From assembly GCA_041666885.1 (NCBI GenBank), contig JBAYGB010000009.1, positions 1-13,677 of the forward strand: a stretch of 13,677 nucleotides of DNA, given 5' to 3'. The position numbers and the translations under genes were made by a program. The number at the start of each line of letters is the position of its first letter. Within the stretch, counting starts at the first letter, position 1. The notes below the pieces were generated by a model. The model was not told the DNA's origin and searched no databases. It saw only the letters and a list, made by a program, of their open reading frames with translations. This DNA comes from Patescibacteria group bacterium (GTDB lineage Bacteria > Patescibacteriota > Patescibacteriia > Patescibacteriales > XYC2-FULL-47-12). This document shows positions 1-13,677 of this stretch, piece after piece.

Positions 1-326
1 AATATGTCTTTGCCTCTTTTTACTTTCTCGTCACTGCCGGCTGAAGTCATCCATAACAGTCCGCCATAAATAAACATTAAAAGCGCAAGCGAACCGACAA
101 TTCCTAAGACGCCGTTAATGACGCGGCCAATTAATGTGGGGATTTCAATATTACTGGTGTTGTTGGTGAGGTGGTTAGTGAGGGAGACGGAGCCGCCAGT
201 AATAGTGCTTGTTTTTGTACCACCACTAAGAGGATCAGTGGGATTTTCTGCTTGCGCGTACTGCAATTGTATAGCCAAAATAGCTAACGACGAAACAATT
301 ACAATGAAAGAAAATATTTTTTTCAT
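1..326 (-). CDS. Partial secreted/membrane protein, pilin-like (TrbC/VirB2 or T4SS-pilin-like architecture); ATG at 326-324, runs off window start
   Basis: Manual translation of minus strand: MKKIFSFIVIVSSLAILAIQLQYAQA|ENPTDPLSGGTKTSTITGGSVSLTNHLTNNTSNIEIPTLIGRVINGVLGIVGSLALLMFIYGGLLWMTSAGSDEKVKRGKDI... Signal peptide with AQA cleavage motif, Gly/Thr-rich linker, one long hydrophobic helix followed by a Lys-rich stretch. No in-frame stop before position 1. Not in the ORF table because it is partial. Confidence 0.4.
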   Translation of the reverse strand, partial: MKKIFSFIVIVSSLAILAIQLQYAQAENPTDPLSGGTKTSTITGGSVSLTNHLTNNTSNIEIPTLIGRVINGVLGIVGSLALLMFIYGGLLWMTSAGSDEKVKRGKDI

Positions 327-349
327 ATTATAGTTTAATTTATATTTAT

Positions 350-358
350 ATTATACCA
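350..358 (-). promoter_or_regulatory. Extended -10 promoter candidate (TGgTATAAT) for the pilin-like gene, 23 nt upstream of its ATG
   Basis: Reverse complement of 350-360 reads TATGGTATAAT. No SD precedes the ATG, so a short or near-leaderless mRNA is implied. The region is AT-rich, so a chance match is possible. Confidence 0.3.
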
Positions 359-360
359 TA

Positions 361-397
361 AAAATAAAAAAAGAGGGAAATGCTTAGCATATCCCTC
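361..397 (-). terminator. Rho-independent terminator for the SPFH/258-aa operon (minus strand)
   Basis: 25-nt near-perfect palindrome GAGGGAAATGCTTAGCATATCCCTC (373-397, 11 of 12 pairs). On the minus strand it is followed by TTTTTTTATTTT (reverse complement of 361-372), 25 nt downstream of the stop of the 422..1198 gene. Confidence 0.6.
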
Positions 398-421
398 ATT
401 AACATAAATTAAAGAACGTGT

Positions 422-1198
422 TTATTTTTTTCGCTCAACAGTGATGGTTGTTATTTCACCGCTAGCGGCTTCAATCCACAAAGTTCCTGTTATGTAGGCG
501 GAAGGGCAAATATTTTCAAATTTTCCATTTTTGAATATTTGCCAATACCCGCCCCAGTGCACACGGAGTTCTTTGTCCGTTTCCAAGCAAATTTTATCGC
601 CTGGAAAAATGATTTCCCCAACTCGGACGGTCGGCACATGATATTGGCGGCTGTCGTTGTCGTCAAATCCTTTGCCGATATAACTTGCCTCAAAGACCGT
701 ATAAGTTTTTGTAGAAAAAATATTAGGCGTAGTTTCTACAAAATTTCTTACAGCGCTCTTTGGATGCGCATCCGGCCAAACAGCGAAAAACAAGACACAT
801 GCTATCGCTATAATTCCTATAATGAAAAGAGGTTTTTTTATATTTTGTAAATTCCATACCCCCTCTTTCCAATTAATAAAACTTATAGCCAAAAAAGCTG
901 AAGTGGCCACTACTGCTCCCATCCATACGCGGCGATTATACATTGTTGCATCACCGGTATAGTAATAATACGCTAATACAAAAGTGCTTACGCAAGAGCA
1001 TATAATCAAGAGTATTTTTATTAAAGTTATTAGCGAAGACATGAGTGTCTTGATTAAAGTTATTAGCGAAGACATGACTGGAATTGGTTGCAGTTGCGGC
1101 GGCTGTGTTGAAGGCTCGGGAGTCGTTTGCGGTTGTGTAGAAGTCGAAGTTACAAGTGTATTTGCTGCCGAATTATTTGCGTGCCTTAGTATTTTCAT
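422..1198 (-). CDS. Membrane protein with Pro/Gln/Thr-rich N-terminus, 3 predicted TM helices and a ~115-aa C-terminal soluble domain; possible NfeD-like partner of the upstream SPFH protein
   Basis: 258-aa ORF with ATG at 1198. Only 3 nt separate it from the stop of the SPFH gene (TAA AAA ATG on the minus strand). Hydrophobic segments LIICSCVSTFVLAYYYY, VWMGAVVATSAFLAISFI and LFIIGIIAIACVLFFAVW. Contains an in-frame 33-bp tandem duplication. Confidence 0.6.
   Translation of the reverse strand: MKILRHANNSAANTLVTSTSTQPQTTPEPSTQPPQLQPIPVMSSLITLIKTLMSSLITLIKILLIICSCVSTFVLAYYYYTGDATMYNRRVWMGAVVATSAFLAISFINWKEGVWNLQNIKKPLFIIGIIAIACVLFFAVWPDAHPKSAVRNFVETTPNIFSTKTYTVFEASYIGKGFDDNDSRQYHVPTVRVGEIIFPGDKICLETDKELRVHWGGYWQIFKNGKFENICPSAYITGTLWIEAASGEITTITVERKK
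1018..1080 (-). repeat. 33-bp in-frame tandem duplication (2 copies) inside the 258-aa gene, encoding MSSLITLIKTL / MSSLITLIKIL
   Basis: ATTAAAGTTATTAGCGAAGACATGA is repeated with 33-nt spacing (1019-1047 and 1052-1080), differing at 1-2 positions. Confidence 0.85.
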
Positions 1199-1201
1199 TT
1201 T

Positions 1202-2803
1202 TTATTCCTCATTTTTTGTACTGTTAAAGCCAGCTCCAAGAGCGGCGCCAGTGGCAGCAAAACCAGGGTGTGATCCTGATTCACTTAAAAAGACATTTGC
1301 TCCGGTTTTTTCTAAACTAAGTAAAAACCGTAGGCGCTGAATGTGTTGTGCTGCTTCTTCTGGGGTTAAGTTACCTTTATTTTGGAGATTTTCCAGTTCT
1401 TTTGCTAAGGCAGTTGCTTTTGTTATTATCGCCTCAGCCTCAGCATTAGCAATAGTTACAATTCCTTTGCCTCTCTCCACTGCCGCTTGCGCGTCATTTA
1501 TTGCCAGTAATAAATTCCGACGCACACCCTTGTCTTCTTCTGAAATGATAATATCAGCAACGGCAATACTAGTTATCTCAACGCCCCACTCCGCGAGTTG
1601 TTTTTCAATGGTGCTTTTTTCGGATTCTTTTGGCACTTGAGCGTCTAATTTTACACCATTTAAAATCCTCTCTTTGCACAAATCTGTTCTTTGGGAGTTT
1701 GCCTCGTTTAATTTTAAGGTGCCGAGATAGCCTCTTAAAACTGAATCAATTTTGCCACGAGTGGCTTTTAAAATATCTTCCGTTCCATAAGTTGCTTTTT
1801 TTGAGTCAATTATTTTGATAAAAGCAGTAGCGATAATTTGCGCTGACCCATCTAAAAAGTCAACTTCATTTTTTAGCATCGGGTTTCCTTGGTCATCAGT
1901 AGTATATAGACCAAGAATTATTTCCCCTTTAAACACTAAATGTTGCAAAATGCAAACATTAAACCATGGAAAAATAAAGTACAAGCCAGACGCTAATGGC
2001 TTACCTATATATTGTCCGAGTTTTTCCACAATTAACTCGTGATTTTGAGGAACGACAACGCATCCTTTCCAAAAAGAAATAATATGAATAACGATAAAAA
2101 CTGTTATTCCCATAAGGATTTCATTGCTCTTTAGCCATTCAATTAATGGATTTAATTTGAATAGCCATGAGTTTTCATCGGGCACGGGAATATAATTTAT
2201 TACTGTTATGGGTGCAACAATCAAAAATAAAATAATCAGAGTAAAAATAATCCAAATGGAACCAGCGACAATTTCTACTCGTACTTTATCTTTACAATGA
2301 AAAAAAATAAGAGCTAATACTGCTAATACGAATCCTGCAGAAAGTATTGTAACTAACGTTTCCATTGGTCCACTAAAAAGTTTACCATAAAAAAAGATAA
2401 CAGCACTTATTAATATTGTTGTAATTAATGTTGTCGTAATACCAAGAAGTGCTTTAAAAATTTTTTCCTTGATTTCTTTTTTAGGACTTTGCAACACGAA
2501 TGTTTTGATAATATTTGTGTTGACAATATTCAAGGAGATATTTATTATCTCTCCCTTTTGTAAATGATTTAAAGGATAGTTATAAATACATCCATTATCA
2601 TCCGTGTCCACAGTTGTGCTAATTACATTTTCTTTGTTCTTTTGGAAAATTATAATTTGGCATTTTTGCCCCCTGTCAAAGTTGGTAATAGCTTGAATAT
2701 TAAGTTGAAAGTCGCCGTCTTTACCGGAAATTTCATATTTAATTTCGGTAAAAATTTCAGGGGCATTTCCTAATGGCTCTTGTATTTCTAGTCCTTTATT
2801 CAT
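1202..2803 (-). CDS. SPFH/band-7 (stomatin/HflKC/flotillin-like) domain protein with an unusual N-terminal ~115-aa extra domain and 4 TM helices
   Basis: 533-aa ORF. Strong SD AGAGGAGAAAAATC precedes ATG 2803. The C-terminal half carries SPFH hallmarks (PQNHELIVEKLGQYIGKPLASGLYFIFPWFNV..., and an Ala/Glu-rich coiled-coil tail AQAAVERGKGIVTIANAEAEAIITKATALAKELENLQ). Four hydrophobic helices lie between residues ~120 and 250. Confidence 0.8.
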   Translation of the reverse strand: MNKGLEIQEPLGNAPEIFTEIKYEISGKDGDFQLNIQAITNFDRGQKCQIIIFQKNKENVISTTVDTDDNGCIYNYPLNHLQKGEIINISLNIVNTNIIKTFVLQSPKKEIKEKIFKALLGITTTLITTILISAVIFFYGKLFSGPMETLVTILSAGFVLAVLALIFFHCKDKVRVEIVAGSIWIIFTLIILFLIVAPITVINYIPVPDENSWLFKLNPLIEWLKSNEILMGITVFIVIHIISFWKGCVVVPQNHELIVEKLGQYIGKPLASGLYFIFPWFNVCILQHLVFKGEIILGLYTTDDQGNPMLKNEVDFLDGSAQIIATAFIKIIDSKKATYGTEDILKATRGKIDSVLRGYLGTLKLNEANSQRTDLCKERILNGVKLDAQVPKESEKSTIEKQLAEWGVEITSIAVADIIISEEDKGVRRNLLLAINDAQAAVERGKGIVTIANAEAEAIITKATALAKELENLQNKGNLTPEEAAQHIQRLRFLLSLEKTGANVFLSESGSHPGFAATGAALGAGFNSTKNEE

Positions 2804-2835
2804 GATTTTTCTCCTCTAACTAACTTTTTTCTAAA

Positions 2836-2918
2836 TTGTCTCGTTCTGCTCCTGATTTGTTCTCTTCAATTACCAAGAAAACCTGTTAACCGAAAAGATC
2901 AGGAACATAATGAGACAA
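2836..2918. promoter_or_regulatory. Imperfect 21-bp inverted repeat (17/21) in the 5' leader of the SPFH gene
   Basis: TTGTCTCGTTCTGCTCCTGAT (2836-2856) versus the reverse complement of ATCAGGAACATAATGAGACAA (2898-2918), flanking a 41-bp loop. Confidence 0.5.
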
Positions 2919-2975
2919 TCTAGATATTTATGAAGGCTTTAATTGCCTTGTTTGTAAGGAGCAAGATAATATTAT

Positions 2976-3004
2976 ATAATAGCATAAATAAAAAAATATG
3001 TCAA
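2976..3004 (-). promoter_or_regulatory. Sigma70-like promoter candidate TTGACA-N17-TATTAT for the SPFH operon
   Basis: On the minus strand, TTGACA (reverse complement of 2999-3004), a 17-nt spacer, then TATTAT (reverse complement of 2976-2981). This would give a ~165-nt leader containing the inverted repeat. The region is AT-rich, so chance is possible. Confidence 0.35.
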
Positions 3005-3050
3005 TTTGTAGACATATTTTTTACTAAAATTAGCTATTTATTATGATTAT

Positions 3051-3440
3051 CTATGGCACGTATTTATTAAATTCTTTTTTGGCCGCTATCGTTTCCTTTA
3101 TTTTTGGCAGTTGTTTTAACCGCTTAAATATAATATAAGCCCAAAAACCTTGGCCTATCGCCCACAGTAAAAACCAAAAGCGGGAGGATAAAAACGGCAC
3201 TGATTCATAGCAGAAAAATAACAACAGCGCGCCGATGATTGTGCCGGTCAGCGCGAAGTTATAACCCGAAAGCCAAAGTTTCGCGTATAGCGTTTTTTTG
3301 TTTTGGTTATAAAATTTCCAGGTAACGACAATGGAGGCGAGAAAAATAATGACAATAACTATCAACGCATATTGCCACATTTTAGTTAACGGACCCGGGT
3401 ACAAGCTAAACCACAGTTTAAAAGTGAAGAAGTTGGACAT
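3051..3440 (-). CDS. Small hypothetical membrane protein (about 3 TM helices)
   Basis: 129-aa ORF with ATG at 3440, hydrophobic helices (ALIVIVIIFLASIVVTW, ALTGTIIGALLLFFCY, FWFLLWAIGQGFWAYIIF) and no overlapping alternative. Function unknown. Confidence 0.5.
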   Translation of the reverse strand: MSNFFTFKLWFSLYPGPLTKMWQYALIVIVIIFLASIVVTWKFYNQNKKTLYAKLWLSGYNFALTGTIIGALLLFFCYESVPFLSSRFWFLLWAIGQGFWAYIIFKRLKQLPKIKETIAAKKEFNKYVP

Positions 3441-3449
3441 AAGTTTAAT

Positions 3450-3540
3450 TATCTCAAATTATTCCAAAAACCAAATTATTTCAAAATCCCGCCTATGGGC
3501 GGGCATTTGAGATAGTTTGGAATAATTTGAAGTTTGATTT
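3450..3540. repeat. Repeat-armed palindromic element: CAAAT/CCAAA-type arm, GC hairpin CCCGCCTATGGGCGGG (3488-3503), complementary TTTGG/TTTGA-type arm. Possible minus-strand terminator for the methyltransferase gene
   Basis: Left arm TATCTCAAATTATTCCAAAAACCAAATTATTTCAAAAT. Right arm CATTTGAGATAGTTTGGAATAATTTGAAGTTTGATTT contains the reverse complements of the left-arm units. On the minus strand the hairpin is followed by ATTTTGAAATAATTTGGTTTTTGG. Confidence 0.6.
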
Positions 3541-3542
3541 TA

Positions 3543-4097
3543 TTAATGTTTCAAAAATACTATTCCGAAATGATACGCGCCGGCGGAAAATTCTTCCATC
3601 AGTTCCAGCCCGAACCGCTGGCAGACGGCGACCAAATTTTCTTTGTTCAAACGCTCTTCAATGGATGGTCCGAACGGAGTGGCGATTTTTTTCCAGTCAA
3701 TAACTAATAGTTTGCCGCCGCGCTTTAACAGGCGCGTTGCTTCCCGTATTATTTCCGACCGCTTGTTTGATTGGAATAATATATTAATCAAGAGGGCGAT
3801 GTCAAGAGAGGAGCTTTCAATTTTGGTCGCCCCGAAAATTTCCAGATTGGACCAAACGGTTTTCACCTGTTTGATATTTTCTTGATTCGCGCGCCGCTCA
3901 ATATTAGCCAAGACATCTTTTAAAATATCCACCGCGTAGACCAAGCCGTGTTCGCCGACAGCGGAAGCCATGGGAAACACAAAATGGCCGGTGCGGCCGC
4001 AACCCAAATCGCCGACCGTCATTCGTTCGCCCATTTGCGTTTTTGTAACGACTATTTGCGGGTCAATCAGCGCGTTTCCTCCTGTTACTTTGGACAT
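3543..4097 (-). CDS. Class I SAM-dependent methyltransferase (small, Methyltransf_11-like)
   Basis: 184 aa. Motif I VGDLGCGRTGHF (GxGxG), a post-I acidic residue (VYAVD) and LLKRGGKLLVIDW (motif III-like). Confidence 0.8.
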   Translation of the reverse strand: MSKVTGGNALIDPQIVVTKTQMGERMTVGDLGCGRTGHFVFPMASAVGEHGLVYAVDILKDVLANIERRANQENIKQVKTVWSNLEIFGATKIESSSLDIALLINILFQSNKRSEIIREATRLLKRGGKLLVIDWKKIATPFGPSIEERLNKENLVAVCQRFGLELMEEFSAGAYHFGIVFLKH

Positions 4098-4104
4098 AAA
4101 TTAG

Positions 4105-4170
4105 GAGCTAGTATTTAGCCCGCCTGCCAAAGTTATGGCTTTGCATCGCGGGCAGGTAGCTAGTATTTAG
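4105..4170. repeat. 13-bp direct repeats AGCTAGTATTTAG (4106-4118 and 4158-4170) flanking a 39-bp GC-rich segment related to palindromic family 1
   Basis: The enclosed segment CCCGCCTGCCAAAGTTATGGCTTTGCATCGCGGGCAGGT shares CCCGC / GGCAGG motifs with the family-1 elements. Confidence 0.6.
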
Positions 4171-4213
4171 TATACAACAAAAAAATTAAAATTAAAAATG
4201 AAACTCTGTATTT

Positions 4214-4329
4214 TGTCATTCCCGCGCAGGCGGGAATCCCTGCCTACCGGCAGGTCAAACTTATTTTATCATTAGATTCCCGCTTTCGCTCGCCTCGTTG
4301 AAGCTCCGGCGAAGCGGGCGGGAATGACA
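4214..4329. repeat. GC-rich palindromic element family 1, copy 1 (TGTCATTCCCGCG...CGGGAATGACA termini, 116 bp)
   Basis: TGTCATTCCCGCGCAGGCGGGAATC at the 5' end and GCGGGCGGGAATGACA at the 3' end. Internal extra hairpin CCTGCCTACCGGCAGG. Sits in the gap between the methyltransferase start and the rnhB stop. Confidence 0.85.
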
Positions 4330-4341
4330 GTAAAAAAACAC

Positions 4342-4953
4342 TTACAAAAGTTTTTTCACCGGTTTGAATGTTTTTCGGTGTATTTCGCACGGCCCGTATA
4401 ATTTTAACGCGTTCAAATGCAATTTTGTGCCGTAGCCTTTATGTTGGTTGAAAAAATAGCGGGGATATTTTAAATGCATTTCTTCCATCATCGCGTCGCG
4501 GGCGACTTTGGCGAGAATGGAGGCGGCGGCAATGGAAAAAATCAGGCCATCGCCGTTAACTATCGCTTTTTGCGGTAAAGAATAATTGGGCAAGGGCAGA
4601 TTGCCGTCTACCAAAATAATTTGCGGCTTTAATTTTAAAATTGAAAGCGCTTTTTTCATCGCCAAAAAACTCGCCTGTAAAATATTAATGCGATCAATCG
4701 TTTCGTGGTTGCACAAACCGATGCCAAAACCTGCGGCGCGCTCCATAATCAGTTTAGCCAAATCAGTTCGTCTGTCCGCGCTTAATTTTTTTGAGTCATT
4801 TACAGCGTTTAATTCCGCCGGCACTTCGGAAAAATCAAAAATCACCGCCGCAGCGACTACCGGTCCGGCGAGCGGTCCGCGGCCGGCCTCGTCAATGCCG
4901 GCAATTACATTATAACCTTGTTGTTTTAAGTTCGTTTCGTAGGAAAAATCCAT
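4342..4953 (-). CDS. rnhB: Ribonuclease HII
   Basis: GIDEAGRGPLAGPVVAAAVIFD and the VNDSKKL / LVDGN motifs are diagnostic of RNase HII. The ORF table starts at a TTG (4959). The first ATG (4953-4951) gives MDFSYETN..., which aligns better with RnhB N-termini. Confidence 0.9.
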   Translation of the reverse strand: MDFSYETNLKQQGYNVIAGIDEAGRGPLAGPVVAAAVIFDFSEVPAELNAVNDSKKLSADRRTDLAKLIMERAAGFGIGLCNHETIDRINILQASFLAMKKALSILKLKPQIILVDGNLPLPNYSLPQKAIVNGDGLIFSIAAASILAKVARDAMMEEMHLKYPRYFFNQHKGYGTKLHLNALKLYGPCEIHRKTFKPVKKLL

Positions 4954-4966
4954 AGACAATATCCAC

Positions 4967-5057
4967 TGTCATTCCCGCGAAAGCGGGAATCTCATGTTTT
5001 GATAATCTTTAGATTCCCGCTTCCTGCCTGCCGGTAGGCAAGGTCGCGGGAATGACA
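4967..5057. repeat. GC-rich palindromic element family 1, copy 2 (91 bp), filling the gap between rnhB and the 126-aa ORF
   Basis: TGTCATTCCCGCGAAAGCGGGAATC ... AGATTCCCGC ... CCTGCCTGCCGGTAGGCAAGG ... GTCGCGGGAATGACA. The internal CCTGCC..GGCAGG hairpin is inverted relative to copy 1. Confidence 0.85.
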
Positions 5058-5062
5058 ATTGA

Positions 5063-5443
5063 TTAAAACGGCCACCAACTTTTCTTCCTCGGTTGCTCTT
5101 TAACAACTTGCGCAAAGGATTCGTTTTTGGCGGCATCAGTTTGTCGTTCCGCCATCGCCTGCAAACGATCAAGTTCTTCTTGCACGAGCGGGCTGTCGTA
5201 TTCGCCCGCGTGCGCGGTTTGCCCTTCGTAGCGGGTTTGGCGCTGGTCCAAATGCAGATTAAAAGTTGTTTGTCCTCCTTGTTCAAAAATATAACAATGA
5301 AAGCGCGGATAAAAATCGCGCGTTAAGCGGCGCGCAAAACTTTCTTGTCCGCTTTGGCGATCATGAATATATGTATAGCCGGCGCGGCGGAGAAAATTTG
5401 CCGGAGATTCTTTTAAGTTTTGGGAAGAAATGGTAAGGCGCAT
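5063..5443 (-). CDS. Conserved-looking hypothetical protein of 126 aa with a basic/aromatic core (FLRRAGYTYIHDRQSGQESFARRL...YPRFHCYIFEQGG...FNLHLDQ)
   Basis: Clean ATG at 5443, protein-like composition, and no competing ORF. I do not recognise the family. The RDFYPRFH segment loosely resembles an Rx4-6H motif, which is weak evidence. Confidence 0.5.
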   Translation of the reverse strand: MRLTISSQNLKESPANFLRRAGYTYIHDRQSGQESFARRLTRDFYPRFHCYIFEQGGQTTFNLHLDQRQTRYEGQTAHAGEYDSPLVQEELDRLQAMAERQTDAAKNESFAQVVKEQPRKKSWWPF

Positions 5444-5494
5444 GTAATTAGTTTATAAAATTACTGTTAAATTGTTTTATTGTTAAATTATTAA

Positions 5495-5630
5495 CCCCTC
5501 CGTCCCGAGCGACTCGGGACACCTCCCCTTATAAAGGGGAGGAATAATGCGGAACAACGACAATGTTAAATCGGCATTTATTCTCCCTCTTTATAAGGGG
5601 GAGTGTCCGACGTCTCGGCGGACGAGGGGG
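5495..5630. repeat. About 136-bp GC/G-tract-rich imperfect palindrome with ~41-bp arms, each composed of two hairpins
   Basis: Arm 5502-5542 GTCCCGAGCGACTCGGGACACCTCCCCTTATAAAGGGGAGG. The reverse complement of arm 5583-5623 is GTCCGCCGAGACGTCGGACACTCCCCCTTATAAAGAGGGAG. The arms are separated by a 40-bp AT-rich centre. Runs of G of length 4 or more lie in and downstream of the right arm (5597-5675). Confidence 0.8.
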
Positions 5631-5708
5631 TCGGGAAACGCCGAAGGCAAAGGGGTTGAGGATTTAGAGGGGGTTAACAATGGAGCAATGGAACAATCTT
5701 ACTATTTG

Positions 5709-6635
5709 TTATTTTTCCAGCCACTTCCTCGCCGCCATCGCCGCCATACCGCCGAAACCGGCCGAAGTGATGGTTTGACGATAAATAAAATCGGCGCATT
5801 CGCCTGCGGCAAAGACACCTTCAATATTGGTGTAGACATTTTCCGTGACAGCGATATGACCTTCTTTTTCGTTTAAGGTTAACTGTCCTTTAAAAATTTC
5901 AGTATTGGGAATATGCCCGATAGCGAAAAACAAGCCATCAAGCGGCAATTCGGAAATCACATTCGTAACAATATTTTTTATTTTTACGCCGGTCAGTCTG
6001 GCTTCTCCCAGATATTCCGTTACTTCACTGTTTAAAATAAGCTCAATTTTTTTATTGGCGAACGTGCGCTGTTTCATAATTTCGCTCGCGCGGAATTCAT
6101 CGCGGCGGTGGATTAAATAAACTTTGTCGGCGAATTTGGTCAGAAAATTGCTTTCTTCCATCGCGCTGTCGCCGCCGCCGATAACGGCGACTGTCTTGCC
6201 GCGATAGAAAAAACCGTCACAAGTCGCGCAGATATGCAGGCCGCGCGCTAATAATTCTTTCTCTTTCGGCAGGTTTAAAGTGCGATAGCGGGAGCCGGTC
6301 GCGACAATCACCGTTCGCGCCTGATAAATTTCATTACCGACAAAAATTTTTTTCGGTTCTTCTGTAAAATCAACTTTGTCCGCCGCGGCGAATTTTATTT
6401 CCGCGCCGAAGCGTTCCGCTTGTTTTTGCATGTTTTGCATCAGTTGCGGGCCGGCGACTCCTTCCGGAAAACCGGGAAAATTTTCTATCACCGTAGTTGT
6501 TGTCGGCTGTCCGCCGGGTTGCGGGCCGGCTAAAACCAGAGGCGCGAGACCGGCGCGCGCGGCGTAAATCGCGGCAGTGTAACCGGCCGGTCCGGAGCCG
6601 ATGATAATGAGTTCGCGAATGTTGTCAGTAGACAT
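5709..6635 (-). CDS. trxB: Thioredoxin-disulfide reductase
   Basis: N-terminal FAD motif IIGSGPAGYTAAIYAARAG, redox-active CATCDG, and NADPH motif VAVIGGGDSAMEE. I chose ATG 6635 (MSTDNIRELIIIGSGPAG) over the ORF-table ATG 6677, which lies inside palindromic element copy 3. Confidence 0.92.
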   Translation of the reverse strand: MSTDNIRELIIIGSGPAGYTAAIYAARAGLAPLVLAGPQPGGQPTTTTVIENFPGFPEGVAGPQLMQNMQKQAERFGAEIKFAAADKVDFTEEPKKIFVGNEIYQARTVIVATGSRYRTLNLPKEKELLARGLHICATCDGFFYRGKTVAVIGGGDSAMEESNFLTKFADKVYLIHRRDEFRASEIMKQRTFANKKIELILNSEVTEYLGEARLTGVKIKNIVTNVISELPLDGLFFAIGHIPNTEIFKGQLTLNEKEGHIAVTENVYTNIEGVFAAGECADFIYRQTITSAGFGGMAAMAARKWLEK

Positions 6636-6671
6636 AAAGATAATTGTTAATTGTGTTAAACATTTAAATAT

Positions 6672-6735
6672 TGTCATTCCCGCGCAGGCGAGAATCTACT
6701 CTTACTCTTAGATTTCCGCCTGCGCGGGAATGACA
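6672..6735. repeat. GC-rich palindromic element family 1, copy 3 (minimal 64-bp form) in the divergent trxB/infB promoter region
   Basis: TGTCATTCCCGCGCAGGCGAGAATC, then TACTCTTACTCTT, then GATTTCCGCCTGCGCGGGAATGACA. The arms are near-perfect reverse complements (24/25). The centre is a TACTCTT 7-mer x2. Confidence 0.85.
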
Positions 6736-6792
6736 GGATAAAAAAATTCTATATCAATATCATATCTTAACTAAACTTTTTAATCAATTTTC

Positions 6793-6821
6793 TTGACTTT
6801 AAACCGGTTTTCAATTAAAGT
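6793..6821 (+). promoter_or_regulatory. Sigma70-like promoter candidate TTGACT-N17-TAAAGT for infB, implying a very short leader
   Basis: TTGACT 6793-6798, a 17-nt spacer, TAAAGT 6816-6821, and only 9 nt to the ATG at 6831. No SD. Confidence 0.35.
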
Positions 6822-6830
6822 AAAAATACT

Positions 6831-8813
6831 ATGAATATAACCGAATTAGCCAGAAGATTAAAACTCACCACGAGCGAGTTGTTTGACACTTTGCCTCAGC
6901 TCGGTTTTGACATTGGCCGGCGGGCGATTAAAATTGACGACCATATCGCTTATAAAATCGTCGCCAACTGGTCAATTTACAAAAAACAGCTGGACGCCAA
7001 AAAAATCGCCGCGGGTGAAATGGCGGCGCCGGTCGCCAATCCGGCCGACAAAAAAACGATTACCATCCCGCCGCAAATCGTGGTGCGGGATTTTGCCGCG
7101 CTAGCCGGTTTGAACGTCAGCAAGGTTTTGACGGAATTGATGAAAAACGGAATTTTTATTTCCATGAATGAAAAAATAGATTTTGACGCCGCGTCCATTA
7201 TCGGCGCGGATTTGAATTTGGAAGTGCTTTTGGACGAGACGGCCGACATCAGCGGACAAAGCGACAACAAATTAAAAAATATCATGGATAAACAGGACAA
7301 AGCGCATTTGGAAGCGCGGCCGCCGGTAGTGGTGGTAATGGGACACGTTGACCATGGTAAAACCAAACTCTTGGACGCCATTCGTGAAACCAACGTAGTG
7401 GCGGGGGAAGCGGGCGGCATTACGCAGCATATCGGCGCGTACCAAATTGAACAGCGGGGTCAGACGATAACTTTCATTGATACTCCCGGACACGAAGTTT
7501 TTACCGCCATGCGCAGCCGCGGAGCGAAAGTGGCGGATGTCGCGATTTTGGTCGTGGCCGCCGATGACGGCGTAAAACCGCAAACCGTTGAAGCGTATCA
7601 TATTATTGAACAGGCAAAAATTCCGTTTGTCGTCGCGATTAATAAAATTGACAAACCCGAGGCGGATATTGACCGCGTCAAAAGCGAATTGTCCAATCAG
7701 TTGCACATTACGCCTGATGATTGGGGTGGAAAAACAATGTGCGTGCCGATTTCCGCCCGAGATAAAATCGGCATTGATAAACTTTTAGACGCGGTATTGT
7801 TTTTAACCGAAATGGAAAAAGAAAAAATTATCGCGAACCCGAATGCGTCGGCGGTCGGCACGGTGGTGGAATCAAACGTGGATAAAGGCGAAGGGCCGGT
7901 CGCGACGATTTTAATTCAAAACGGCACTCTGCGCGCCGGTGAGATTCTTTGTTTTAACAATGAACCTTTGGGCCGGGTGCGCATCATGAAAAATTATCGG
8001 GGAGAGATAGTGCCAGTTGCCACGCCGGCCATGCCGGTTAGAATATCCGGCTTAAAATCCAGCCCGAGCATCGGCGATATTGTGGAAGTTGTTTGCGCCG
8101 GGGAAACGGCGACCGGCAGCGGCAAAAAAATGCGCTTGGGTAAAATTAAAAAAGGAAATTTTAAATCGGCGACGACGTCAACCGCCGCCTCGGCGGAAAA
8201 TAATGCCAGCGTAAAGTTTGTTAATATTGTTATTCGTACGGATGTCTTGGGTTCCGTTGAAGCGATTGAAGAGGCGTTGGAAAAATTGGGCACGGCGGAG
8301 GTAAAAGTAAAAATAATAAAAAAAGGTTTGGGAAACTTTACGGAAAGCGATGTGCATACGGCCTTCGCGGCCAAAGCCTGCGTTTTGGGATTTAACGCGG
8401 AAATCAATCATGCGGTCAATCTGCTCGCGCGTGAAAAAGGCGTGGAAGTAAAAAGTTTTTCCATTATTTACGAATTGGTTGATTTTATTAAACAAAAAAT
8501 GGAAGTGTTATCCCCCAAACCGGTCGTCAGAAAAGGATTGGGAACGATAAAAGTTTTAGCCATTTTTAAAACCGGCAATAACAGCCAAATCATCGGCGGT
8601 AAAGTGGAAAGCGGATTGATTGAACTTAACGCCAAAATTGAAGCGGTGCGCGATGATATGGTTATCGCGATTGGCGAATTGGTTGGGTTGCAGTCAGGAA
8701 AACAAAGCGTCGTTGATGTTGCGAGCGGGCAGGAATGCGGCGTGGAATTCAAGGGCGAACCGGTGATTAAGTCGGGCGATGTACTGAGAGTATATAAAGA
8801 AATTACGAATTAA
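6831..8813 (+). CDS. infB: Translation initiation factor IF-2
   Basis: IF2_N-like N-terminus. G-domain motifs [12 protein letters not shown] (G1), DTPGHEVF (G3) and AINKID (G4), followed by IF-2 domain II through C2. 660 aa. Confidence 0.95.
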
Positions 8814-8960
8814 GAATTAAGAATTACGAATGAGGAATTAAGAATGCAGAATGCAAATTAAGTTAAAAGTGAAAAGTTAAAATTGTTTGCCTCGCCGCAG
8901 CTTCTAGCGAAGGCGGGTTAAATTGTTTGAAAATTAGAAATTGAAAATTGAAAATTTTTA
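8800..8960. repeat. Degenerate heptamer array (GAATTAA/GAATGCA/TTAAAAG x ~12), then bulged hairpin 8895-8916 flanked by direct repeats GTTAAA(A)TTGTTTG, then (GAAAATT)x4
   Basis: 7-nt periodicity is visible from 8807 to 8889 and from 8929 to 8956. The infB stop codon is part of the first GAATTAA unit. The TTG at 8941 used by the ORF caller for rbfA lies inside the GAAAATT array. Confidence 0.8.
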
Positions 8961-8964
8961 TCAT

Positions 8965-9312
8965 ATGCCCCGAAGAATAGAACAAGTTAATGAAATGCTG
9001 CGCGCGGAAATTGCGCTCGCGATCGCGCGCGAACTGGATTTTTCGGACGCGCTTTTGACCGTGACCAAGGTTGACTGCGCGCGCGAACTGGACGAGGCGA
9101 GAGTCTGGATCTCGGTTTTGCCGGATAATCGCGCCGGCTCGGCGATGCAAGCTTTGCGCCGCGGACAGAGCCTGATTCGACAGGCAATCGGCAAAAAAAT
9201 TTCCTGGCGCCGCTTACCGCGGTTTATTTTTATTTTTGACGATACGGAAAAGCACGCCGCCGTCATTGATAATATTTTTAAAGAAATTAACCAAGCAGAA
9301 ATTAATGGCTAA
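8965..9312 (+). CDS. rbfA: Ribosome-binding factor A
   Basis: MPRRIEQVNEMLRAEIALAIAREL...VTKVDCARELDEARVWISVL aligns with the RbfA N-terminal consensus (RxxRVxExLxxEIAxIL...VTxVxxSxDLxxAxVYVx). I chose ATG 8965 over the upstream TTG 8941. Confidence 0.85.
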   Translation: MPRRIEQVNEMLRAEIALAIARELDFSDALLTVTKVDCARELDEARVWISVLPDNRAGSAMQALRRGQSLIRQAIGKKISWRRLPRFIFIFDDTEKHAAVIDNIFKEINQAEING

Positions 9313-10267
9313 CGATTCCGTCTATCAAGAAATAATAAACAAGCTCGCGACCGCTCGCAAAGTTTTTTTGGCCACGCATGAAAACCCGGACGGCGACGCG
9401 GTCGCTTCCATCTGCGCTTTTGCCGAATGGCTTAGACTATTGGGAAAAGAATTTTATCTTTTTTGCGCGGACGAGCCGGAAGACGGCTTTCATTTTTTGC
9501 CGCAAATGGAAAAAATAAATCGGCGGATGGAAGAAATTGATTTTGACGATTTTGATTTGATTATCGTGCTGGATTGCGGCGCTTTGCACCGGACAAAAAT
9601 TGAAACGGAGATAAAGGCAAGCAATTTGGTAATCATCAATATTGACCATCATATTTCCAATAATCAATTCGGCAGCATAAATTTAGTTGACGCCGAAGCC
9701 GCCTCCACCACGCAGTTGTTATATGAACTTTTTAAATTCAGCAAATTGGAAATCAGCCGCCAGCTCGCAAGTTGCATTCTGACCGGCATTATTACCGACT
9801 CCGGCAGTTTCGCTTATGCGGCAACTAACGCCAATACTTTCAGTGTGGCGAGTGAAATGTTGACGCGGGGCGCGAATGTGCGCGCGATTGTAAATTACAC
9901 GGAAAAAAATAAAAATTTAGCCACTTTAAAAGCGTGGGGCTATGCTTTGAGCCAGATGCATTACAATGCCGATTACGATATTGCTTATACCGTCATCACG
10001 CAGGCGGATTTGATAAAATTCAACATCACCAAGCAGGATTTGGAAGGTTTGGCTAGTTTTTTAAATAATTTGAAAGATGCTAAAATAATATTGGTGCTGT
10101 ACGAACTCGGAGACGGGCGGGTAAAAGGCAGTTTGCGCACGAACTTAATCAACGTTGATGTCGCAAAATTAGCCCAAGTATTTGGCGGCGGCGGGCACAG
10201 GAAAGCGGCGGGATTTGAAGTTGAAGGAAAATTGGCGCAGGCGGGCGGTGGTTGGAGAATTGAATAA
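9305..10267 (+). CDS. nrnA: DHH/DHHA1 family phosphoesterase, NrnA-like (oligoribonuclease / pAp phosphatase)
   Basis: DHH motifs HENPDGDAVAS, VLDCG, NIDHH and the DHHA1 motif GGGGHRKAAGF. The ATG at 9305 overlaps the rbfA stop (ATGGCTAA, 8-nt overlap), so the two are translationally coupled. The ORF-table start 9236 is a TTG extension. Confidence 0.85.
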   Translation: MANDSVYQEIINKLATARKVFLATHENPDGDAVASICAFAEWLRLLGKEFYLFCADEPEDGFHFLPQMEKINRRMEEIDFDDFDLIIVLDCGALHRTKIETEIKASNLVIINIDHHISNNQFGSINLVDAEAASTTQLLYELFKFSKLEISRQLASCILTGIITDSGSFAYAATNANTFSVASEMLTRGANVRAIVNYTEKNKNLATLKAWGYALSQMHYNADYDIAYTVITQADLIKFNITKQDLEGLASFLNNLKDAKIILVLYELGDGRVKGSLRTNLINVDVAKLAQVFGGGGHRKAAGFEVEGKLAQAGGGWRIE

Positions 10268-10364
10268 AATAGTTAATCAGTTGAACAGTTAATTAGTTAA
10301 ATAGTTTTTGATATTTTATAACAACTAATTAACTATTCAACTAAGTAACTAATCAACTAAAACT
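10268..10364. repeat. Repeat-armed palindromic element filling the whole nrnA-clpP gap: (AGTTRAWY)x5 left arm, TTTGATATTTTAT centre, (NYAACTAA)x5 right arm
   Basis: Left arm AGTTAATC AGTTGAAC AGTTAATT AGTTAAAT AGTTTTTG. Right arm ACAACTAA TTAACTAT TCAACTAA GTAACTAA TCAACTAA AACTATG. The arms are approximate reverse complements with period 8. Confidence 0.8.
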
Positions 10365-10943
10365 ATGCCTCTAATTCCCACAGTCATTGAAAAATCGCAA
10401 TTCGGCGAACGGGCGTACGATATTTATTCCCGTTTGCTTAAAGACCGCATTATTTTTTTGGGCGAACCGGTCACGGACGTGGTCGCGAACATTATTATCG
10501 CCCAGTTTTTATTTTTGGACGCGCAAGACGGCACGAAAGATATTAAATTTTATATCAACACTCCGGGCGGTTCAGTTACCGCCGGCATGGCGATTTATGA
10601 TACGATGCAATATGTAAAATCGGATGTGTCCACTATTTGCGTCGGCATGGCCGCGAGCATGGGCGCAATTTTACTCGCTTCCGGCGCGGCGGGTAAACGG
10701 TTTGCTTTGCCGAACGCGGAAGTGATGATCCATCAAATCATGGGCGGCGCTGAAGGACAGGCGGTGGATATCAAAATTCAGGCCGAGCATATTTTAAAAT
10801 TAAAAGACAAGTTGAATCAGATTTTAGCCAAACATACCGGCCAAAAAATTCCGACCATTGAGCGCGATACCGACCGTGATTATTTTATGAGCGCGGAAGA
10901 GGCGAAAAAATACGGGATCGTTGATAAAATTATTGCAAAGTAA
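10365..10943 (+). CDS. clpP: ATP-dependent Clp protease proteolytic subunit
   Basis: [16 protein letters not shown], catalytic Ser in GMAASMGA, His in MIHQ, and the C-terminal Asp region. 192 aa. Confidence 0.95.
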
Positions 10944-10969
10944 TTTTGATAAATTTCCATGAATTATGA

Positions 10970-10996
10970 GGCGGCGTCACTTTGATGTCGCCTTTT
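10970..10996 (+). terminator. Rho-independent terminator after clpP
   Basis: 9-bp stem GGCGGCGTC/GATGTCGCC (two G-U wobbles), 5-nt loop, followed by TTTTGTT. Confidence 0.5.
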
Positions 10997-10999
10997 GTT

Positions 11000-11113
11000 A
11001 GATATTGGATATTAAGATATTAGGATATTGCGCTGCGAAAGCAAGAAGTTTATTATGATGATAATACTATTTCCATGCGTTGCGAATATTCAATATCCTA
11101 ATATTCAATATCT
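11000..11113. repeat. Repeat-armed palindromic element, GGATATT family, copy A (clpP-lgt gap)
   Basis: Left arm AGATATT GGATATT AAGATATT AGGATATT (11000-11029). Reverse complement of right arm 11084-11113 is AGATATT GAATATT AGGATATT GAATATT. A 54-bp unique centre separates them. The right arm ends 12 nt before the lgt ATG. Confidence 0.85.
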
Positions 11114-11125
11114 TGTATTACAATT

Positions 11126-12025
11126 ATGAATTTTTTACATTTTTATCTTCCCCAGCCAATTTTATTTCACTTAGGCGTGATAAATGTTTATTGGTACGGT
11201 TTTTTAATGGCGCTGGCGATACTCGCCGGATTGCTCGTGAGCGTGCGCGTGGCCAAGTGGCACGGAGTTGATAAAGAAATTATTTATGATTTATTTTTTT
11301 ACGTTGTTATCGCCGGCTTTATCGGCGCGCGTATTTTTTATATTTTGTATAACCCGGAATATTTTTGGCAGCATCCGTTAGATATTTTTAAAATTTGGCA
11401 AGGCGGAATTGCGATTCACGGCGCGTTGATTTTTGGAATTTTGGCAATAATTTGGTTTGTGCGGCGCATGCCGCCGATAGAGACGTTGCATTGCAACGTC
11501 TCTACGATGAAAAACAATTTTTGGTTGTTGTCCGCAATCATCGCGCCCGGTCTTGCGCTGGGACAGGCGATTGGTCGGTGGGGTAATTATTTTAATCAGG
11601 AATTATTCGGCCGACCGACTGATTTGCCCTGGGGCATTCCGATTGATTTGATAAATCGACCCGCCGGATTTGAACAGTTTACTTATTTTCACCCAACGTT
11701 TTTGTATGAGAGCGTTGGAGATTTAACGATATTCATATTATTATTATTGACGCATTGGTTTTTTGCGCATAATACAAGAAACGGGGAACGAGTAACAAGT
11801 AACGGGCAAAAACCGTTAAATAATCATTCTCTCATTACTCATTACTCATTACTCATTACTTTATATTTATTACTGTATTCTTTATTGCGTTTTATGATTG
11901 AATTTTTGCGCATTGACCCGACCGCCGGCAGTATTTTTGGGGTGCGGGCGACGATGGGGCTGAGTTTGTTAATAGGCGTTGGCGTGTTATTATATTGGCG
12001 CGCCATATTTTATTTAAAAAGATGA
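11126..12025 (+). CDS. lgt: Prolipoprotein diacylglyceryl transferase, carrying an in-frame repeat-element insertion in a C-terminal loop
   Basis: N-terminal VYWYGFLMALAIL and the Lgt signature GQAIGRWGNYFNQELFGRPTDLPWGIPID. Compared with E. coli Lgt, about 23 extra residues (AHNTRNGERVTSNGQKPLNNHSLITHYSLLITLY) lie between the sixth helix and the LRFMIEFLR segment. Confidence 0.88.
   Translation: MNFLHFYLPQPILFHLGVINVYWYGFLMALAILAGLLVSVRVAKWHGVDKEIIYDLFFYVVIAGFIGARIFYILYNPEYFWQHPLDIFKIWQGGIAIHGALIFGILAIIWFVRRMPPIETLHCNVSTMKNNFWLLSAIIAPGLALGQAIGRWGNYFNQELFGRPTDLPWGIPIDLINRPAGFEQFTYFHPTFLYESVGDLTIFILLLLTHWFFAHNTRNGERVTSNGQKPLNNHSLITHYSLLITLYLLLYSLLRFMIEFLRIDPTAGSIFGVRATMGLSLLIGVGVLLYWRAIFYLKR
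11790..11874. repeat. Intragenic repeat-armed palindromic element inside lgt: (AGTAACR)x2, then hairpin AACGG-GCAAAAA-CCGTT, then (CATTACT)x4
   Basis: AGTAACA 11791-11797 and AGTAACG 11798-11804. Centre hairpin 11801-11817. CATTACT at 11833, 11840, 11847 and 11854 (reverse complement AGTAATG), plus degenerate units TCATTCT and TATTACT on either side. The reading frame is preserved and encodes LITHYSLLITLY. Confidence 0.85.
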
Positions 12026-12054
12026 CCGCTTGCTTTTTTTCTTCAACCTTGATA

Positions 12055-12063
12055 TGATACAAT
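12055..12063 (+). promoter_or_regulatory. Extended -10 candidate TGaTACAAT upstream of rpsT
   Basis: TGATACAAT about 86 nt upstream of the rpsT ATG. AT-rich context, so weak evidence. Confidence 0.25.
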
Positions 12064-12095
12064 AAGTTAAAATAATAAATCTAATAAAAATTTAA

Positions 12096-12138
12096 GGCGG
12101 GTAGCGGCAGTCGCGGGATTGCTTCGCTCGCAATGACA
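12096..12138. repeat. Truncated half-copy of palindromic family 1 in the rpsT 5' leader
   Basis: GGCGGGTAGCGGCAGTCGCGGGATTGCTTCGCTCGCAATGACA shares TTCGCTCGC and GCGGGAATGACA-like ends with copy 1. It ends 10 nt before the rpsT ATG and can form a GC hairpin. Confidence 0.6.
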
Positions 12139-12148
12139 GATTAAAATT

Positions 12149-12415
12149 ATGCCTAACATCAAAGCGGCCATGAAAGCCTTGCGCAAAAGCAAAAAAGTAA
12201 AAATAACGAACGACGCCGTTAAAAACAACATTGGACGGCTGATCAAAAAATCGCGGAAAGCGATTGACGCTAAAGCCGATACCGCCAAAGATTTGGTTCA
12301 GCAAACGGTAAAAGCGCTGGATAAAGCGGTGCAGAAAAAAATATTAAAGCCGAACACCGGCAACCGCAAGAAATCAAGATTGATGAAAAAACTCAACCAG
12401 ATAATCGCAAAATAA
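12149..12415 (+). CDS. rpsT: 30S ribosomal protein S20
   Basis: 88 aa, Lys/Ala-rich: MPNIKAAMKALRKSKKVKITNDAVKNNIGRLIKK...LKPNTGNRKKSRLMKKLNQI, which matches the S20 consensus (MANxKSAxKRxR...N...RKKS...). It lies divergent to holA, as in many bacteria. Confidence 0.9.
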   Translation: MPNIKAAMKALRKSKKVKITNDAVKNNIGRLIKKSRKAIDAKADTAKDLVQQTVKALDKAVQKKILKPNTGNRKKSRLMKKLNQIIAK

Positions 12416-12433
12416 CAAAGTTTGTTAAAATAA

Positions 12434-12466
12434 AAAAATCCCCTAGAAATAAGGGATTTTTTATTT
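12434..12466. terminator. Strong bidirectional rho-independent terminator after rpsT
   Basis: AAAAATCCC-CTAGAAATAA-GGGATTTTT followed by TATTT. An A-run upstream and a T-run downstream allow function on both strands (rpsT on plus, holA on minus). Confidence 0.7.
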
Positions 12467-12545
12467 AATATTAGGATATTGGATATTAAGATATTAAATG
12501 CCGCGATTTTGAAAGTTCTGTCGATATCATAATATCCTAATATCC
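12467..12545. repeat. Repeat-armed palindromic element, GGATATT family, copy B (rpsT-holA gap)
   Basis: Left arm AATATT AGGATATT GGATATT AAGATATT. Reverse complement of right arm 12524-12545 is CTGGATATT AGGATATT ATGATAT. It shares an identical 24-mer GATATTGGATATTAAGATATTA with copy A. The centre differs (AAATGCCGCGATTTTGAAAGTTCTGTCG). Confidence 0.85.
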
Positions 12546-12576
12546 AGTCTCTGGCAGAAAAAAGCAGAAGTATTGA

Positions 12577-13593: not shown

Positions 13594-13677
13594 AAATTAA
13601 GAATTAAGAATTAAGAATTAAGAATTAAGAATTAAGAATTAAGAATTAAGAATTAAGAATTAAGAATTAAGAATTAA
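13594..13677. repeat. Perfect heptamer microsatellite (GAATTAA)x11 preceded by AAATTAA, immediately upstream of the holA start; the array runs off the window end
   Basis: 13601-13677 is exactly 11 x GAATTAA with no mismatch. It is the same unit as the degenerate array after infB (8807-8889). Confidence 0.95.

Follow-up and report, generated by a model that had tools for sequence, protein, structure and literature searches.

The repeat of Neisseria that was first named dRS3, ATTCCC-N8-GGGAAT, was redefined in 2025 as the Neisseria Transformation Sequence (NTS), CGTCATTCCCGCGMAVGCGGGAATCYRG (PMC11893778). Its partner SsnA, a GIY-YIG protein of 94 aa, binds and cleaves the NTS hairpin solely as single-stranded DNA (ssDNA) and in a single orientation; cutting is reported to depend on the three bases 5' of the palindrome, and binding on the C that directly follows the palindrome at its 3' end (PMC11893778). 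Homologues of ssnA occur across phyla, where they are flanked by Ssn-related motifs (SRM), and the layout NTS-ssnA-NTS has been likened to an insertion sequence (PMC11893778). The 2025 work described the repeat family together with its nuclease partner and left open how the repeat spreads. Here, we analyze three palindromic elements in a 13,677-nt stretch of DNA from a Patescibacteria group bacterium (GenBank assembly GCA_041666885.1, contig JBAYGB010000009.1, positions 1 to 13,677 of the forward strand; hereafter the window, whose numbering is used unless another locus is named) and find that they are inverted pairs, or doublets, of a hairpin that belongs to the NTS/SRM family. A preliminary description of this DNA had likened them to repetitive extragenic palindromic (REP) sequences and miniature inverted-repeat transposable elements (MITEs).

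Results

Membership of the arms in the NTS/SRM family

The doublets lie at 4214-4329 (copy 1, 116 bp), 4967-5057 (copy 2, 91 bp), and 6672-6735 (copy 3, 64 bp), which confirms the coordinates at which three copies with inverted arms of about 25 bp had been proposed. Each doublet is an inverted pair of one 25-nt unit, TGTCATTCCCGCG-MAV-GCGGGAATC, and starts with TGTCATTCCCGCG and ends with CGCGGGAATGACA, the two arms being separated by a spacer of 14-20 nt. Every 25-nt arm is a hairpin by itself, in which ATTCCCGC and GCGGGAAT enclose a 4-nt loop with an 8-bp stem. The arm motif ATTCCCGCnnnnGCGGGAAT occurs four times in the window at up to three mismatches versus 0.10 expected occurrences, and none of 200 shuffled sequences reached four. 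Folded as single strands and compared with dinucleotide shuffles, the copies give z scores of -6.4, -9.9, and -10.2, and one arm alone, the left arm of copy 1, gives -4.6. The arms are indeed the GC-rich islands that had been noticed, with about 64% G+C in a contig of about 42%.

The elements of the window belong to a known, recently characterized, and very widespread family. The arm shares its 24-nt core, GTCATTCCCGCG-MAV-GCGGGAATC, base for base with the Neisseria dRS3/NTS repeat; the left arm of copy 1 and that of copy 2 match NTS throughout core positions 2-25, and the GTC 5' of the palindrome as well as the C just 3' of it are kept in six of six arms. The 20-bp palindromic motif of dRS3 is found without mismatch at 4218-4237 and 4971-4990 and with one mismatch at 6676-6695 and 6712-6731; in the right arms of copies 1 and 2 the loop of this motif is expanded. 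The degenerate SRM pattern, which we searched as HGTCWY-N(0-2)-YYVSBRH-N(0-5)-WNVSBRG-N(0-2)-RNCYNB, is matched by two arms, 4214-4241 and 6672-6699, versus a mean of 0.05 in shuffles, and the left arm of copy 2 misses it at the last degenerate base only. The left arm of copy 1 (TGTCATTCCCGCGCAGGCGGGAATC; 4214-4238, plus strand) accordingly combines the canonical NTS/dRS3 core hairpin with a fit to the published degenerate motif. Among 540 arms, 72 stem pairs are altered on both sides and still form Watson-Crick pairs versus one broken double change, and because of this record of compensation the hairpin itself is under selection.

A scan with one genome per species returned at least 119 stretches that carry doublets with the termini TGTCATTCCCGC-N38-68-GCGGGAATGACA. 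These stem from well over 100 species of many phyla, namely Alpha-, Beta-, Gamma-, and Deltaproteobacteria, Bacteroidota, Ignavibacteriota, Nitrospirales, Omnitrophota, Chloroflexota, Planctomycetota, Acidobacteriota, and Firmicutes, as well as from about 22 Patescibacteria loci among the matches listed (Falkow-, Magasanik-, Doudna-, Harrison-, and Paceibacterota, Saccharibacteria, Absconditabacteria). Over 125 doublets, those positions of the arm that were free to vary in the search are about 90% conserved and spell the NTS consensus. A metagenome scan with a CAG-arm plus TAAGA pattern added eight loci with more doublets, in which neither an ssn gene nor another contig of the window lineage appeared. 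In 135 doublets, target-site duplications of 2-6 nt are no more frequent than expected by chance, and the copies of the window are flanked by none. A T-run follows the element on 13 of 270 sides only, and the 3' flanks are purine-rich. Across eight near-identical contigs of another Patescibacteria species, no doublet was polymorphic.

The single arm is common in viral contigs of IMG/VR (loci L002-L121; the matches listed are a lower bound), and because of this, phages and prophages that carry the NTS arm could move it between hosts. Some of the arms in viral contigs adjoin capsid, tail-collar, and prohead-protease genes.

A scan of the whole window and of 4100-6800 against Rfam gave sub-threshold matches only (FtrB, WsnRNA46, CRISPR-DR28, and miRNA families). 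The best of them, to FtrB (Francisella small RNA (sRNA) B, RF02748) at 6646-6757 on the minus strand, reaches 29.2 bits versus a gathering score of 66; that to WsnRNA46 of Wolbachia reaches 25.5 versus 65.3, and that to CRISPR-DR28 at 4218-4241 reaches 21.9 versus 35.

Link to an SsnA-type nuclease

Clustering of the open reading frames (ORFs) in the genome loci revealed two kinds of recurrent neighbors and no others: spurious ORFs, which are mere translations of the repeat, and a small family of GIY-YIG proteins. The translated arms yield the recurrent pseudo-peptides SFPRRRES, IPAQAGMT/IPAFAGMT, DSRLRGND, and CHSREGGNP (genome loci L122-L240), which top the ORF 'families' by size in unrelated genomes and have likely given rise to spurious hypothetical proteins. 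Profile and tblastn searches located GIY-YIG ORFs, 95-100 aa in length, that abut arms in six loci (L189, L161, L038, L235, L096, L004). More than 7000 proteins of this length (PF01541) came up in a homologue search; the best 120 listed are 63-77% identical to the query, come from across phyla, and in many cases lie on very short contigs.

In a locus of Ca. Falkowbacteria (L246), inverted arms exactly enclose a 96-aa GIY-YIG gene (1160-1450), with TGTCATTCCCGCGCAGGCGGGAATC on its left (1128-1152) and GATTCCCGCCTGCGCGGGAATGACA on its right (1467-1491). The encoded protein aligns without gaps to the gonococcal SsnA orthologue, with 58% identity over 89 residues (E = 1e-39). This orthologue (L263, 1518-1802) is an unannotated 94-aa protein that has Y6, Y17, and E64 as in published SsnA and whose gene lies among 11 NTS arms in 3.3 kb. 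It was supplied by one of two PLSDB entries, NZ_CP119140.1 and NZ_CP119142.1, that are labelled plasmids and are really 2.17-Mb chromosomes of N. gonorrhoeae. Since NCBIfam gave merely weak, sub-threshold domain matches for the GIY-YIG proteins, their membership in the SsnA family was set by alignment to the gonococcal orthologue. Arms lie within 400 bp in nine of the nine ssn-type loci examined, including four that had been fetched by the protein alone (L246, L247, L266, L263).

Gain, loss, and inversion in syntenic relatives

The gene order of the window is common to contigs whose TrxB is 88% (L241), 82% (L242/L243), and 70% (L244/L245) identical. L241 has copies 1 and 2 and L243 is without them, while copy 3 is found in the window only.

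Copy 2 takes up most of the intercistronic spacer between rnhB and the gene of a 126-aa hypothetical protein (hyp126). L241 carries a doublet at the same site, the orthologous arm of which reads ATCCCCGCGAAAGCGGGGAT and shows a compensatory T>C / A>G pair; its right-arm loop is of the plain AAA type versus a 21-nt CCTGCC-type hairpin (5023-5043) that is nested in the loop of the right arm in the window. The element is absent from this spacer in L243 and L244.

At the site of copy 1, between rnhB and the methyltransferase gene, L241 has a minimal doublet of 70 bp, which is embedded in identical, colinear flanks and lies in the opposite orientation: Once two clean insertions are removed from copy 1, the two elements agree at 69 of 70 positions as reverse complements, while the direct orientation aligns poorly. 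One insertion, of 30 nt at 4290-4319, has grown the 4-nt loop of the right arm (GATTCCCGC...GCGGGAATGACA; 4275-4329, minus strand) to 34 nt. The other, the 16-nt hairpin CCTGCCTACCGGCAGG at 4239-4254, sits beside the other arm, between it and the spacer, and is missing from the L241 orthologue. The same spacer is without the element in L243 and has a divergent doublet with the same TGTCATT...AATGACA ends in L244 (TGTCATTTCG...CGAAATGACA, 12995-13110 of that contig) and also in L245.

The preliminary description had seen extra CCTGCC..GGCAGG hairpins in opposite orientations in the two longer copies, and these are the hairpins at 4239-4254 and 5023-5043. Because the close relative L241 shows the sites without them, they are secondary insertions, one abutting an arm and one inside an arm loop. 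The arm loops of 25 and 34 nt in the window are the largest among all fetched loci. We rejected CCTGCC..GGCAGG as a separate repeat family: It has nine matches in 2.1 Mb, and those near arms are confined to this contig.

Copy 3 is the minimal form, with arms at 6672-6696 and 6711-6735 and a 14-nt spacer, and occupies the divergent infB/trxB spacer. Both L241, whose infB/trxB spacer holds an unrelated CAATGG-type repeat, and L243, whose spacer is short, lack it. L244 has a variant single arm there, TGTCATTCCTGTGGAGACAGGAATCCAG. This arm (9795-9826 of L244; also in L245) again has the TGTCATT...AATGACA ends, shows two compensatory stem changes (ATTCCTGT/ACAGGAAT), and abuts the infB start; the infB call of L244 is 705 aa long versus 657-660 aa elsewhere, and its start is probably placed too far upstream, so that it runs through the arm. 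Short CAATGG/CCATTG-type repeats are also found just past trxB in the window (5680-5700), and in L241 they fill the infB/trxB spacer at 9860-9960, in the place of copy 3. Doublets of the window and of L241 have related spacers (TAA.GAT...TGA), which suggests that doublets propagate as units.

Genomic context

The window corresponds, in reverse complement, to the greater part of a 15.6-kb ENA metagenome contig (L001), and its genes have housekeeping functions. Its TrxB protein is entered at NCBI under 'Patescibacteria group bacterium', the nearest named relatives being Ca. Falkowbacteria. Genes for a Band-7 protein, the methyltransferase, rnhB, hyp126, trxB, and holA are on the minus strand; infB, rbfA, the DHH phosphoesterase gene, clpP, lgt, and rpsT are on the plus strand. 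The elements had been described as always lying beside minus-strand start codons, which applies to copy 2, 13 nt from the rnhB ATG, and to copy 3, 36 nt from the trxB ATG; copy 1 breaks the rule, as it lies 12 nt past the rnhB stop codon (4342) and 116 nt ahead of the methyltransferase start. A promoter-like TTGATT-17-TATGAT site that is kept in relatives lies upstream of copy 3, which therefore probably sits in the trxB 5' untranslated region (5'UTR). Downstream of copy 1, the methyltransferase gene has a conserved extended -10 box, TGTATA(A/C)T; copy 1 lies between the rnhB stop codon and the promoter region of this gene. No T-run follows any copy of the window in the sense of the genes.

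Two further segments had been grouped with the elements. The half-copy in the rpsT leader (12096-12138, plus strand; …GTCGCGGGA[TTGCTTCGCTCGC]AATGACA) aligns only modestly to the right part of copy 2, with a score of 22 that 9 of 384 random windows and, among 300 shuffles, 4 also attain (empirical p about 0.01-0.02). It has no significant fold (z = -1.0), is absent from the relatives, and is weakly supported; it may be a decayed arm. The segment at 4105-4170, taken for a related fragment, has just a 9-nt match in common with the arms. It is a separate 38-nt hairpin (4119-4156) in the methyltransferase leader, flanked by direct repeats of 12 nt (4107-4118 and 4159-4170); this lineage-specific insertion is absent in L241 and is no member of the arm family.

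The 126-aa protein (5063-5443, minus strand) is conserved and always encoded just upstream of rnhB in the lineage (L241, L243); searches of Pfam, NCBIfam, and the PDB sequences yielded no match, and nothing connects this protein with the elements. Several other repeats are present. A second, unrelated palindrome at 5494-5631, between the trxB stop codon and the 126-aa gene, has 54-nt arms that are 74% complementary and the core CCTCCCCTT(A/T)TAAAGGGGAGG; L241 has it in the same spacer, L243 has a simpler hairpin there, and two copies of its type occur in an unrelated metagenome contig (L259) that is itself rich in NTS doublets. A palindrome with 29-nt arms lies between the DHH gene and clpP (10270-10351), and lgt-rpsT is bracketed by AT-rich inverted repeats (10993-11110 versus 12462-12559) with ATATCCTAATATT-type units of 26-36 nt that are 81-92% complementary. 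Tandem arrays of the heptamer AATTAAG (variant AATTACG) follow infB (8786-8866) and occupy the right end (13566-13677). Within the holA coding region, the hairpin CCTGCCGAAGAGGCAGG followed by T8 (13235-13259) is kept in L241 and resembles a terminator on the plus strand, antisense to holA.

Discussion

We consider it likely, though well short of certain, that the doublets are inverted pairs of the dRS3/NTS (SRM) hairpin which act as ssDNA hairpins and are non-autonomous, REPIN-like derivatives of NTS-ssn-NTS units. The observed basis comprises the family membership of the arms, the selected hairpin, and the arm-linked ssn gene with its bracketed unit in a related lineage. The lineages moreover differ by gain and loss, by inversion, and by nested insertions, with neither target-site duplications nor terminator tails.

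The doublets would have arisen from an NTS-ssn-NTS unit as derivatives without the gene. Whenever the DNA becomes single-stranded, in replication, repair, or DNA uptake, each arm would fold and could be bound by an Ssn-type nuclease whose gene lies in another part of the genome. This enzyme would nick a few nucleotides 5' of TGTCA, which is just outside each doublet end on the two strands, and nicking together with recombination between the 25-bp inverted arms might bring about both spread and inversion. By analogy with Neisseria, control of incoming homologous DNA is a conceivable further role. Where transcribed, the doublets would necessarily form long RNA hairpins in the trxB 5'UTR, at the hyp126-rnhB junction, and at the rnhB 3' end.

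Several points weigh against this explanation. The window arms fail the strict NTS rule (28-nt CGTCATTCCCGCGMAVGCGGGAATCYRG with at most one mismatch), as each has three mismatches at degenerate outer positions, namely position 1 (T for C) and the final two or three positions. Imperfections affect four of the six arms, as two have a stem mismatch and two have loops of 25-34 nt, and these four may for this reason be poor Ssn substrates. The window has no nuclease or transposase gene, and no Ssn-type nuclease gene was found in the window or in 21 kb of L241, the coverage of the host genome being 15.6 kb. The statistics above cover loci among the matches listed, which are not a random sample. Finally, the activity shown for SsnA is just binding and cutting of ssDNA, and strand transfer or transposition has been shown for no Ssn protein (PMC11893778), so that the mobilization step is an inference.

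A bolder proposal is that NTS-ssn-NTS units and gene-less doublets together form a truly mobile class that is driven by a GIY-YIG ssDNA nuclease and is active in Patescibacteria. The gain and loss at orthologous spacers, the in-place flips, and the extra hairpins gathered in exposed arm loops could all be read in this manner. To our knowledge, no transposition or copying mechanism has been shown for the GIY-YIG nuclease superfamily, and we regard this proposal as tentative and, on balance, doubtful.

Among the alternatives, the one that survives best takes the doublets for strict REPINs that are mobilized by a REP-associated tyrosine Y1/HUH transposase (RAYT), with the GIY-YIG association being secondary. 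The architecture agrees with it: Two inverted REP-like hairpins less than 130 bp apart form a larger hairpin, the elements are intergenic, and target-site duplications are missing. Moreover, a preprint by Bertels and Rainey attributes the same repeat of Neisseria to a RAYT transposase of Group 2 and names ATTCCCGCGCAGGCGGGAATC as its REP sequence (10.1101/2021.07.10.451892). Since this is the same Neisseria 21-mer, the literature holds two candidate partner enzymes, which is a further argument against the SsnA-based explanation. The preliminary description had likewise pointed to a RAYT or IS200-like gene, and none lies near more than 500 arms in 2.2 Mb of loci, as judged from a search for the HUH...YxxxNP motif and tblastn with the single query E. 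coli RayT, methods that are not very sensitive. RAYT is also not among the 25 most frequent of the 107 families in a Pfam scan of 150 arm-adjacent ORFs. What recurs instead is the SsnA-type gene, which abuts or is bracketed by arms in nine of nine loci. With no arm-flanked RAYT in the arm-bearing loci, we rejected membership in a REPIN-RAYT system by cognate gene and hold mobilization by a RAYT to be unlikely.

The elements might alternatively be cis-regulators at the RNA level (terminator, attenuator, mRNA stabilizer, or RNase III site) that are selected for their effect on the flanking genes. Their positions speak for this, as every copy is found in an untranslated part of an array of co-directional genes, with copy 3 downstream of a conserved promoter-like site, copy 2 ending 13 nt before the rnhB start, and copy 1 following the rnhB stop; related repeats also overlap annotated sRNAs, as seen in the sub-threshold FtrB match with its shared hairpin. 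Yet the same 25-nt arm is kept across phyla, in either orientation and beside genes of unrelated kinds, L243 has orthologous spacers that function without the element, and the associated DNA nuclease is inactive on RNA (PMC11893778). Intrinsic termination, one of the functions that had been suggested for the elements, is not supported, given the missing 3' T-runs in the window and the lack of a U-tract on either strand elsewhere (13 of 270 sides, purine-rich 3' flanks). RNA-level effects on mRNA stability or translation are plausible, and they are probably incidental, a by-product of hairpin insertion into untranslated regions; they cannot explain the cross-phylum conservation of the arm. We therefore judge selection for a regulatory RNA to be improbable, somewhat more so than mobilization by a RAYT.

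Similarly, the arms could be attachment or integration sites of a mobile element, in the way that dRS3 serves Neisseria filamentous prophages with an IS110-type transposase. In Neisseria, phages are documented to target dRS3 (cited in PMC11893778), and arms lie beside phage structural genes in many IMG/VR viral contigs; as the doublets are complete, symmetric, and just 64-116 bp long, and as neither an integrase nor an IS110-like gene nor a prophage is present in the window or its syntenic relatives, we deem this very improbable. Coincidental local duplication or a CRISPR remnant has a negligible chance of being correct, because identical termini occur in more than 100 species besides the copies in L241, which rules out the local accident that the preliminary description had named as its fallback, and because the weak CRISPR-DR28 match at 4218-4241 is below threshold and the inverted pairs are irregularly spaced, 700-1700 bp apart, with no cas genes.

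The SsnA-based explanation has practical bearings. The locus and its syntenic relatives form a compact natural experiment, with filled versus element-free sites, an in-place inversion, loop-nested insertions, and a bracketed ssn gene in a related lineage, and these observations can guide tests of whether Ssn nucleases mobilize their own recognition hairpins. For annotation, recognizing the family avoids calling its arms ORFs (SFPRRRES, IPAQAGMT, and DSRLRGND peptides), sRNAs, or CRISPR repeats, and it flags strong hairpins in the trxB leader and at the rnhB junctions. What is modestly new is that, in a reduced Patescibacteria genome, a copy has been inverted in place, hairpins are nested in arm loops, and copies are gained or lost site by site, all of which bears on how these repeats spread.

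Of the known systems, the closest is Neisseria dRS3/NTS with SsnA (Nat Commun 2025, PMC11893778), with which the window elements share the 24-nt core, the 8-bp stem, the GTC and 3' C, and the intergenic location; also common to both are the link of arms to a single-domain GIY-YIG gene of about 95 aa and, in a related lineage, the NTS-ssn-NTS architecture. The differences lie in the outer positions, where the window has T instead of C at position 1 and TCTA/TCTC/TCCC instead of TCYRG, in the host, which belongs to Patescibacteria (the candidate phyla radiation, CPR), and in the arrangement, as the window has only tight inverted doublets, some with large loop-nested hairpins. While the gene (about 94 aa, cd10448) is seen in relatives and other hosts such as L246, the system of the window is known from its repeats alone.

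The REPINs of RAYTs (E. coli REP/BIME) likewise consist of inverted pairs of hairpin repeats with a lineage-conserved spacer, are intergenic, lack target-site duplications, and persist vertically with occasional gain or loss; the recurring partner of window-type arms is a GIY-YIG nuclease and not a Y1/HUH transposase. Neisseria intergenic mosaic elements (NIMEs) resemble the doublets in layout, on which this comparison is based: dRS3-type arms surround variable inserts to give mosaic intergenic blocks, whereas the inner segments in the window are 14-20-nt spacers and small lineage-specific hairpins.

The likeness to REP sequences and MITEs that had been proposed at the outset holds insofar as the elements are dispersed, intergenic, palindromic, and present in relatives. 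Like the MITEs Correia/NEMIS, they are short, non-coding, and near genes, have terminal inverted repeats, and put hairpins into transcripts; a classical MITE we rejected, since target-site duplications are missing from the 135 doublets as well as from the window copies, and in contrast to Correia/NEMIS the termini are themselves hairpins and no DDE transposase parent is evident. The 'peel and paste' elements IS200/IS605, an analogy drawn by the Ssn authors, have subterminal hairpins that are recognized in ssDNA, leave no target-site duplication, and are small. Their own ends are unlike each other and are served by a Y1 HUH transposase, whereas the window ends are the same hairpin in inverted orientation and the candidate enzyme is a GIY-YIG nuclease without demonstrated joining activity. 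Finally, the consensus of Rfam FtrB (RF02748) holds the same hairpin, gUCAUUCCCGCGuAGGCGGGAAUCUC, which indicates that such repeats are transcribed and annotated as sRNAs elsewhere; in FtrB and WsnRNA46, whose matches are far under the gathering scores, it is the repeat hairpin alone that is shared with the elements of the window.

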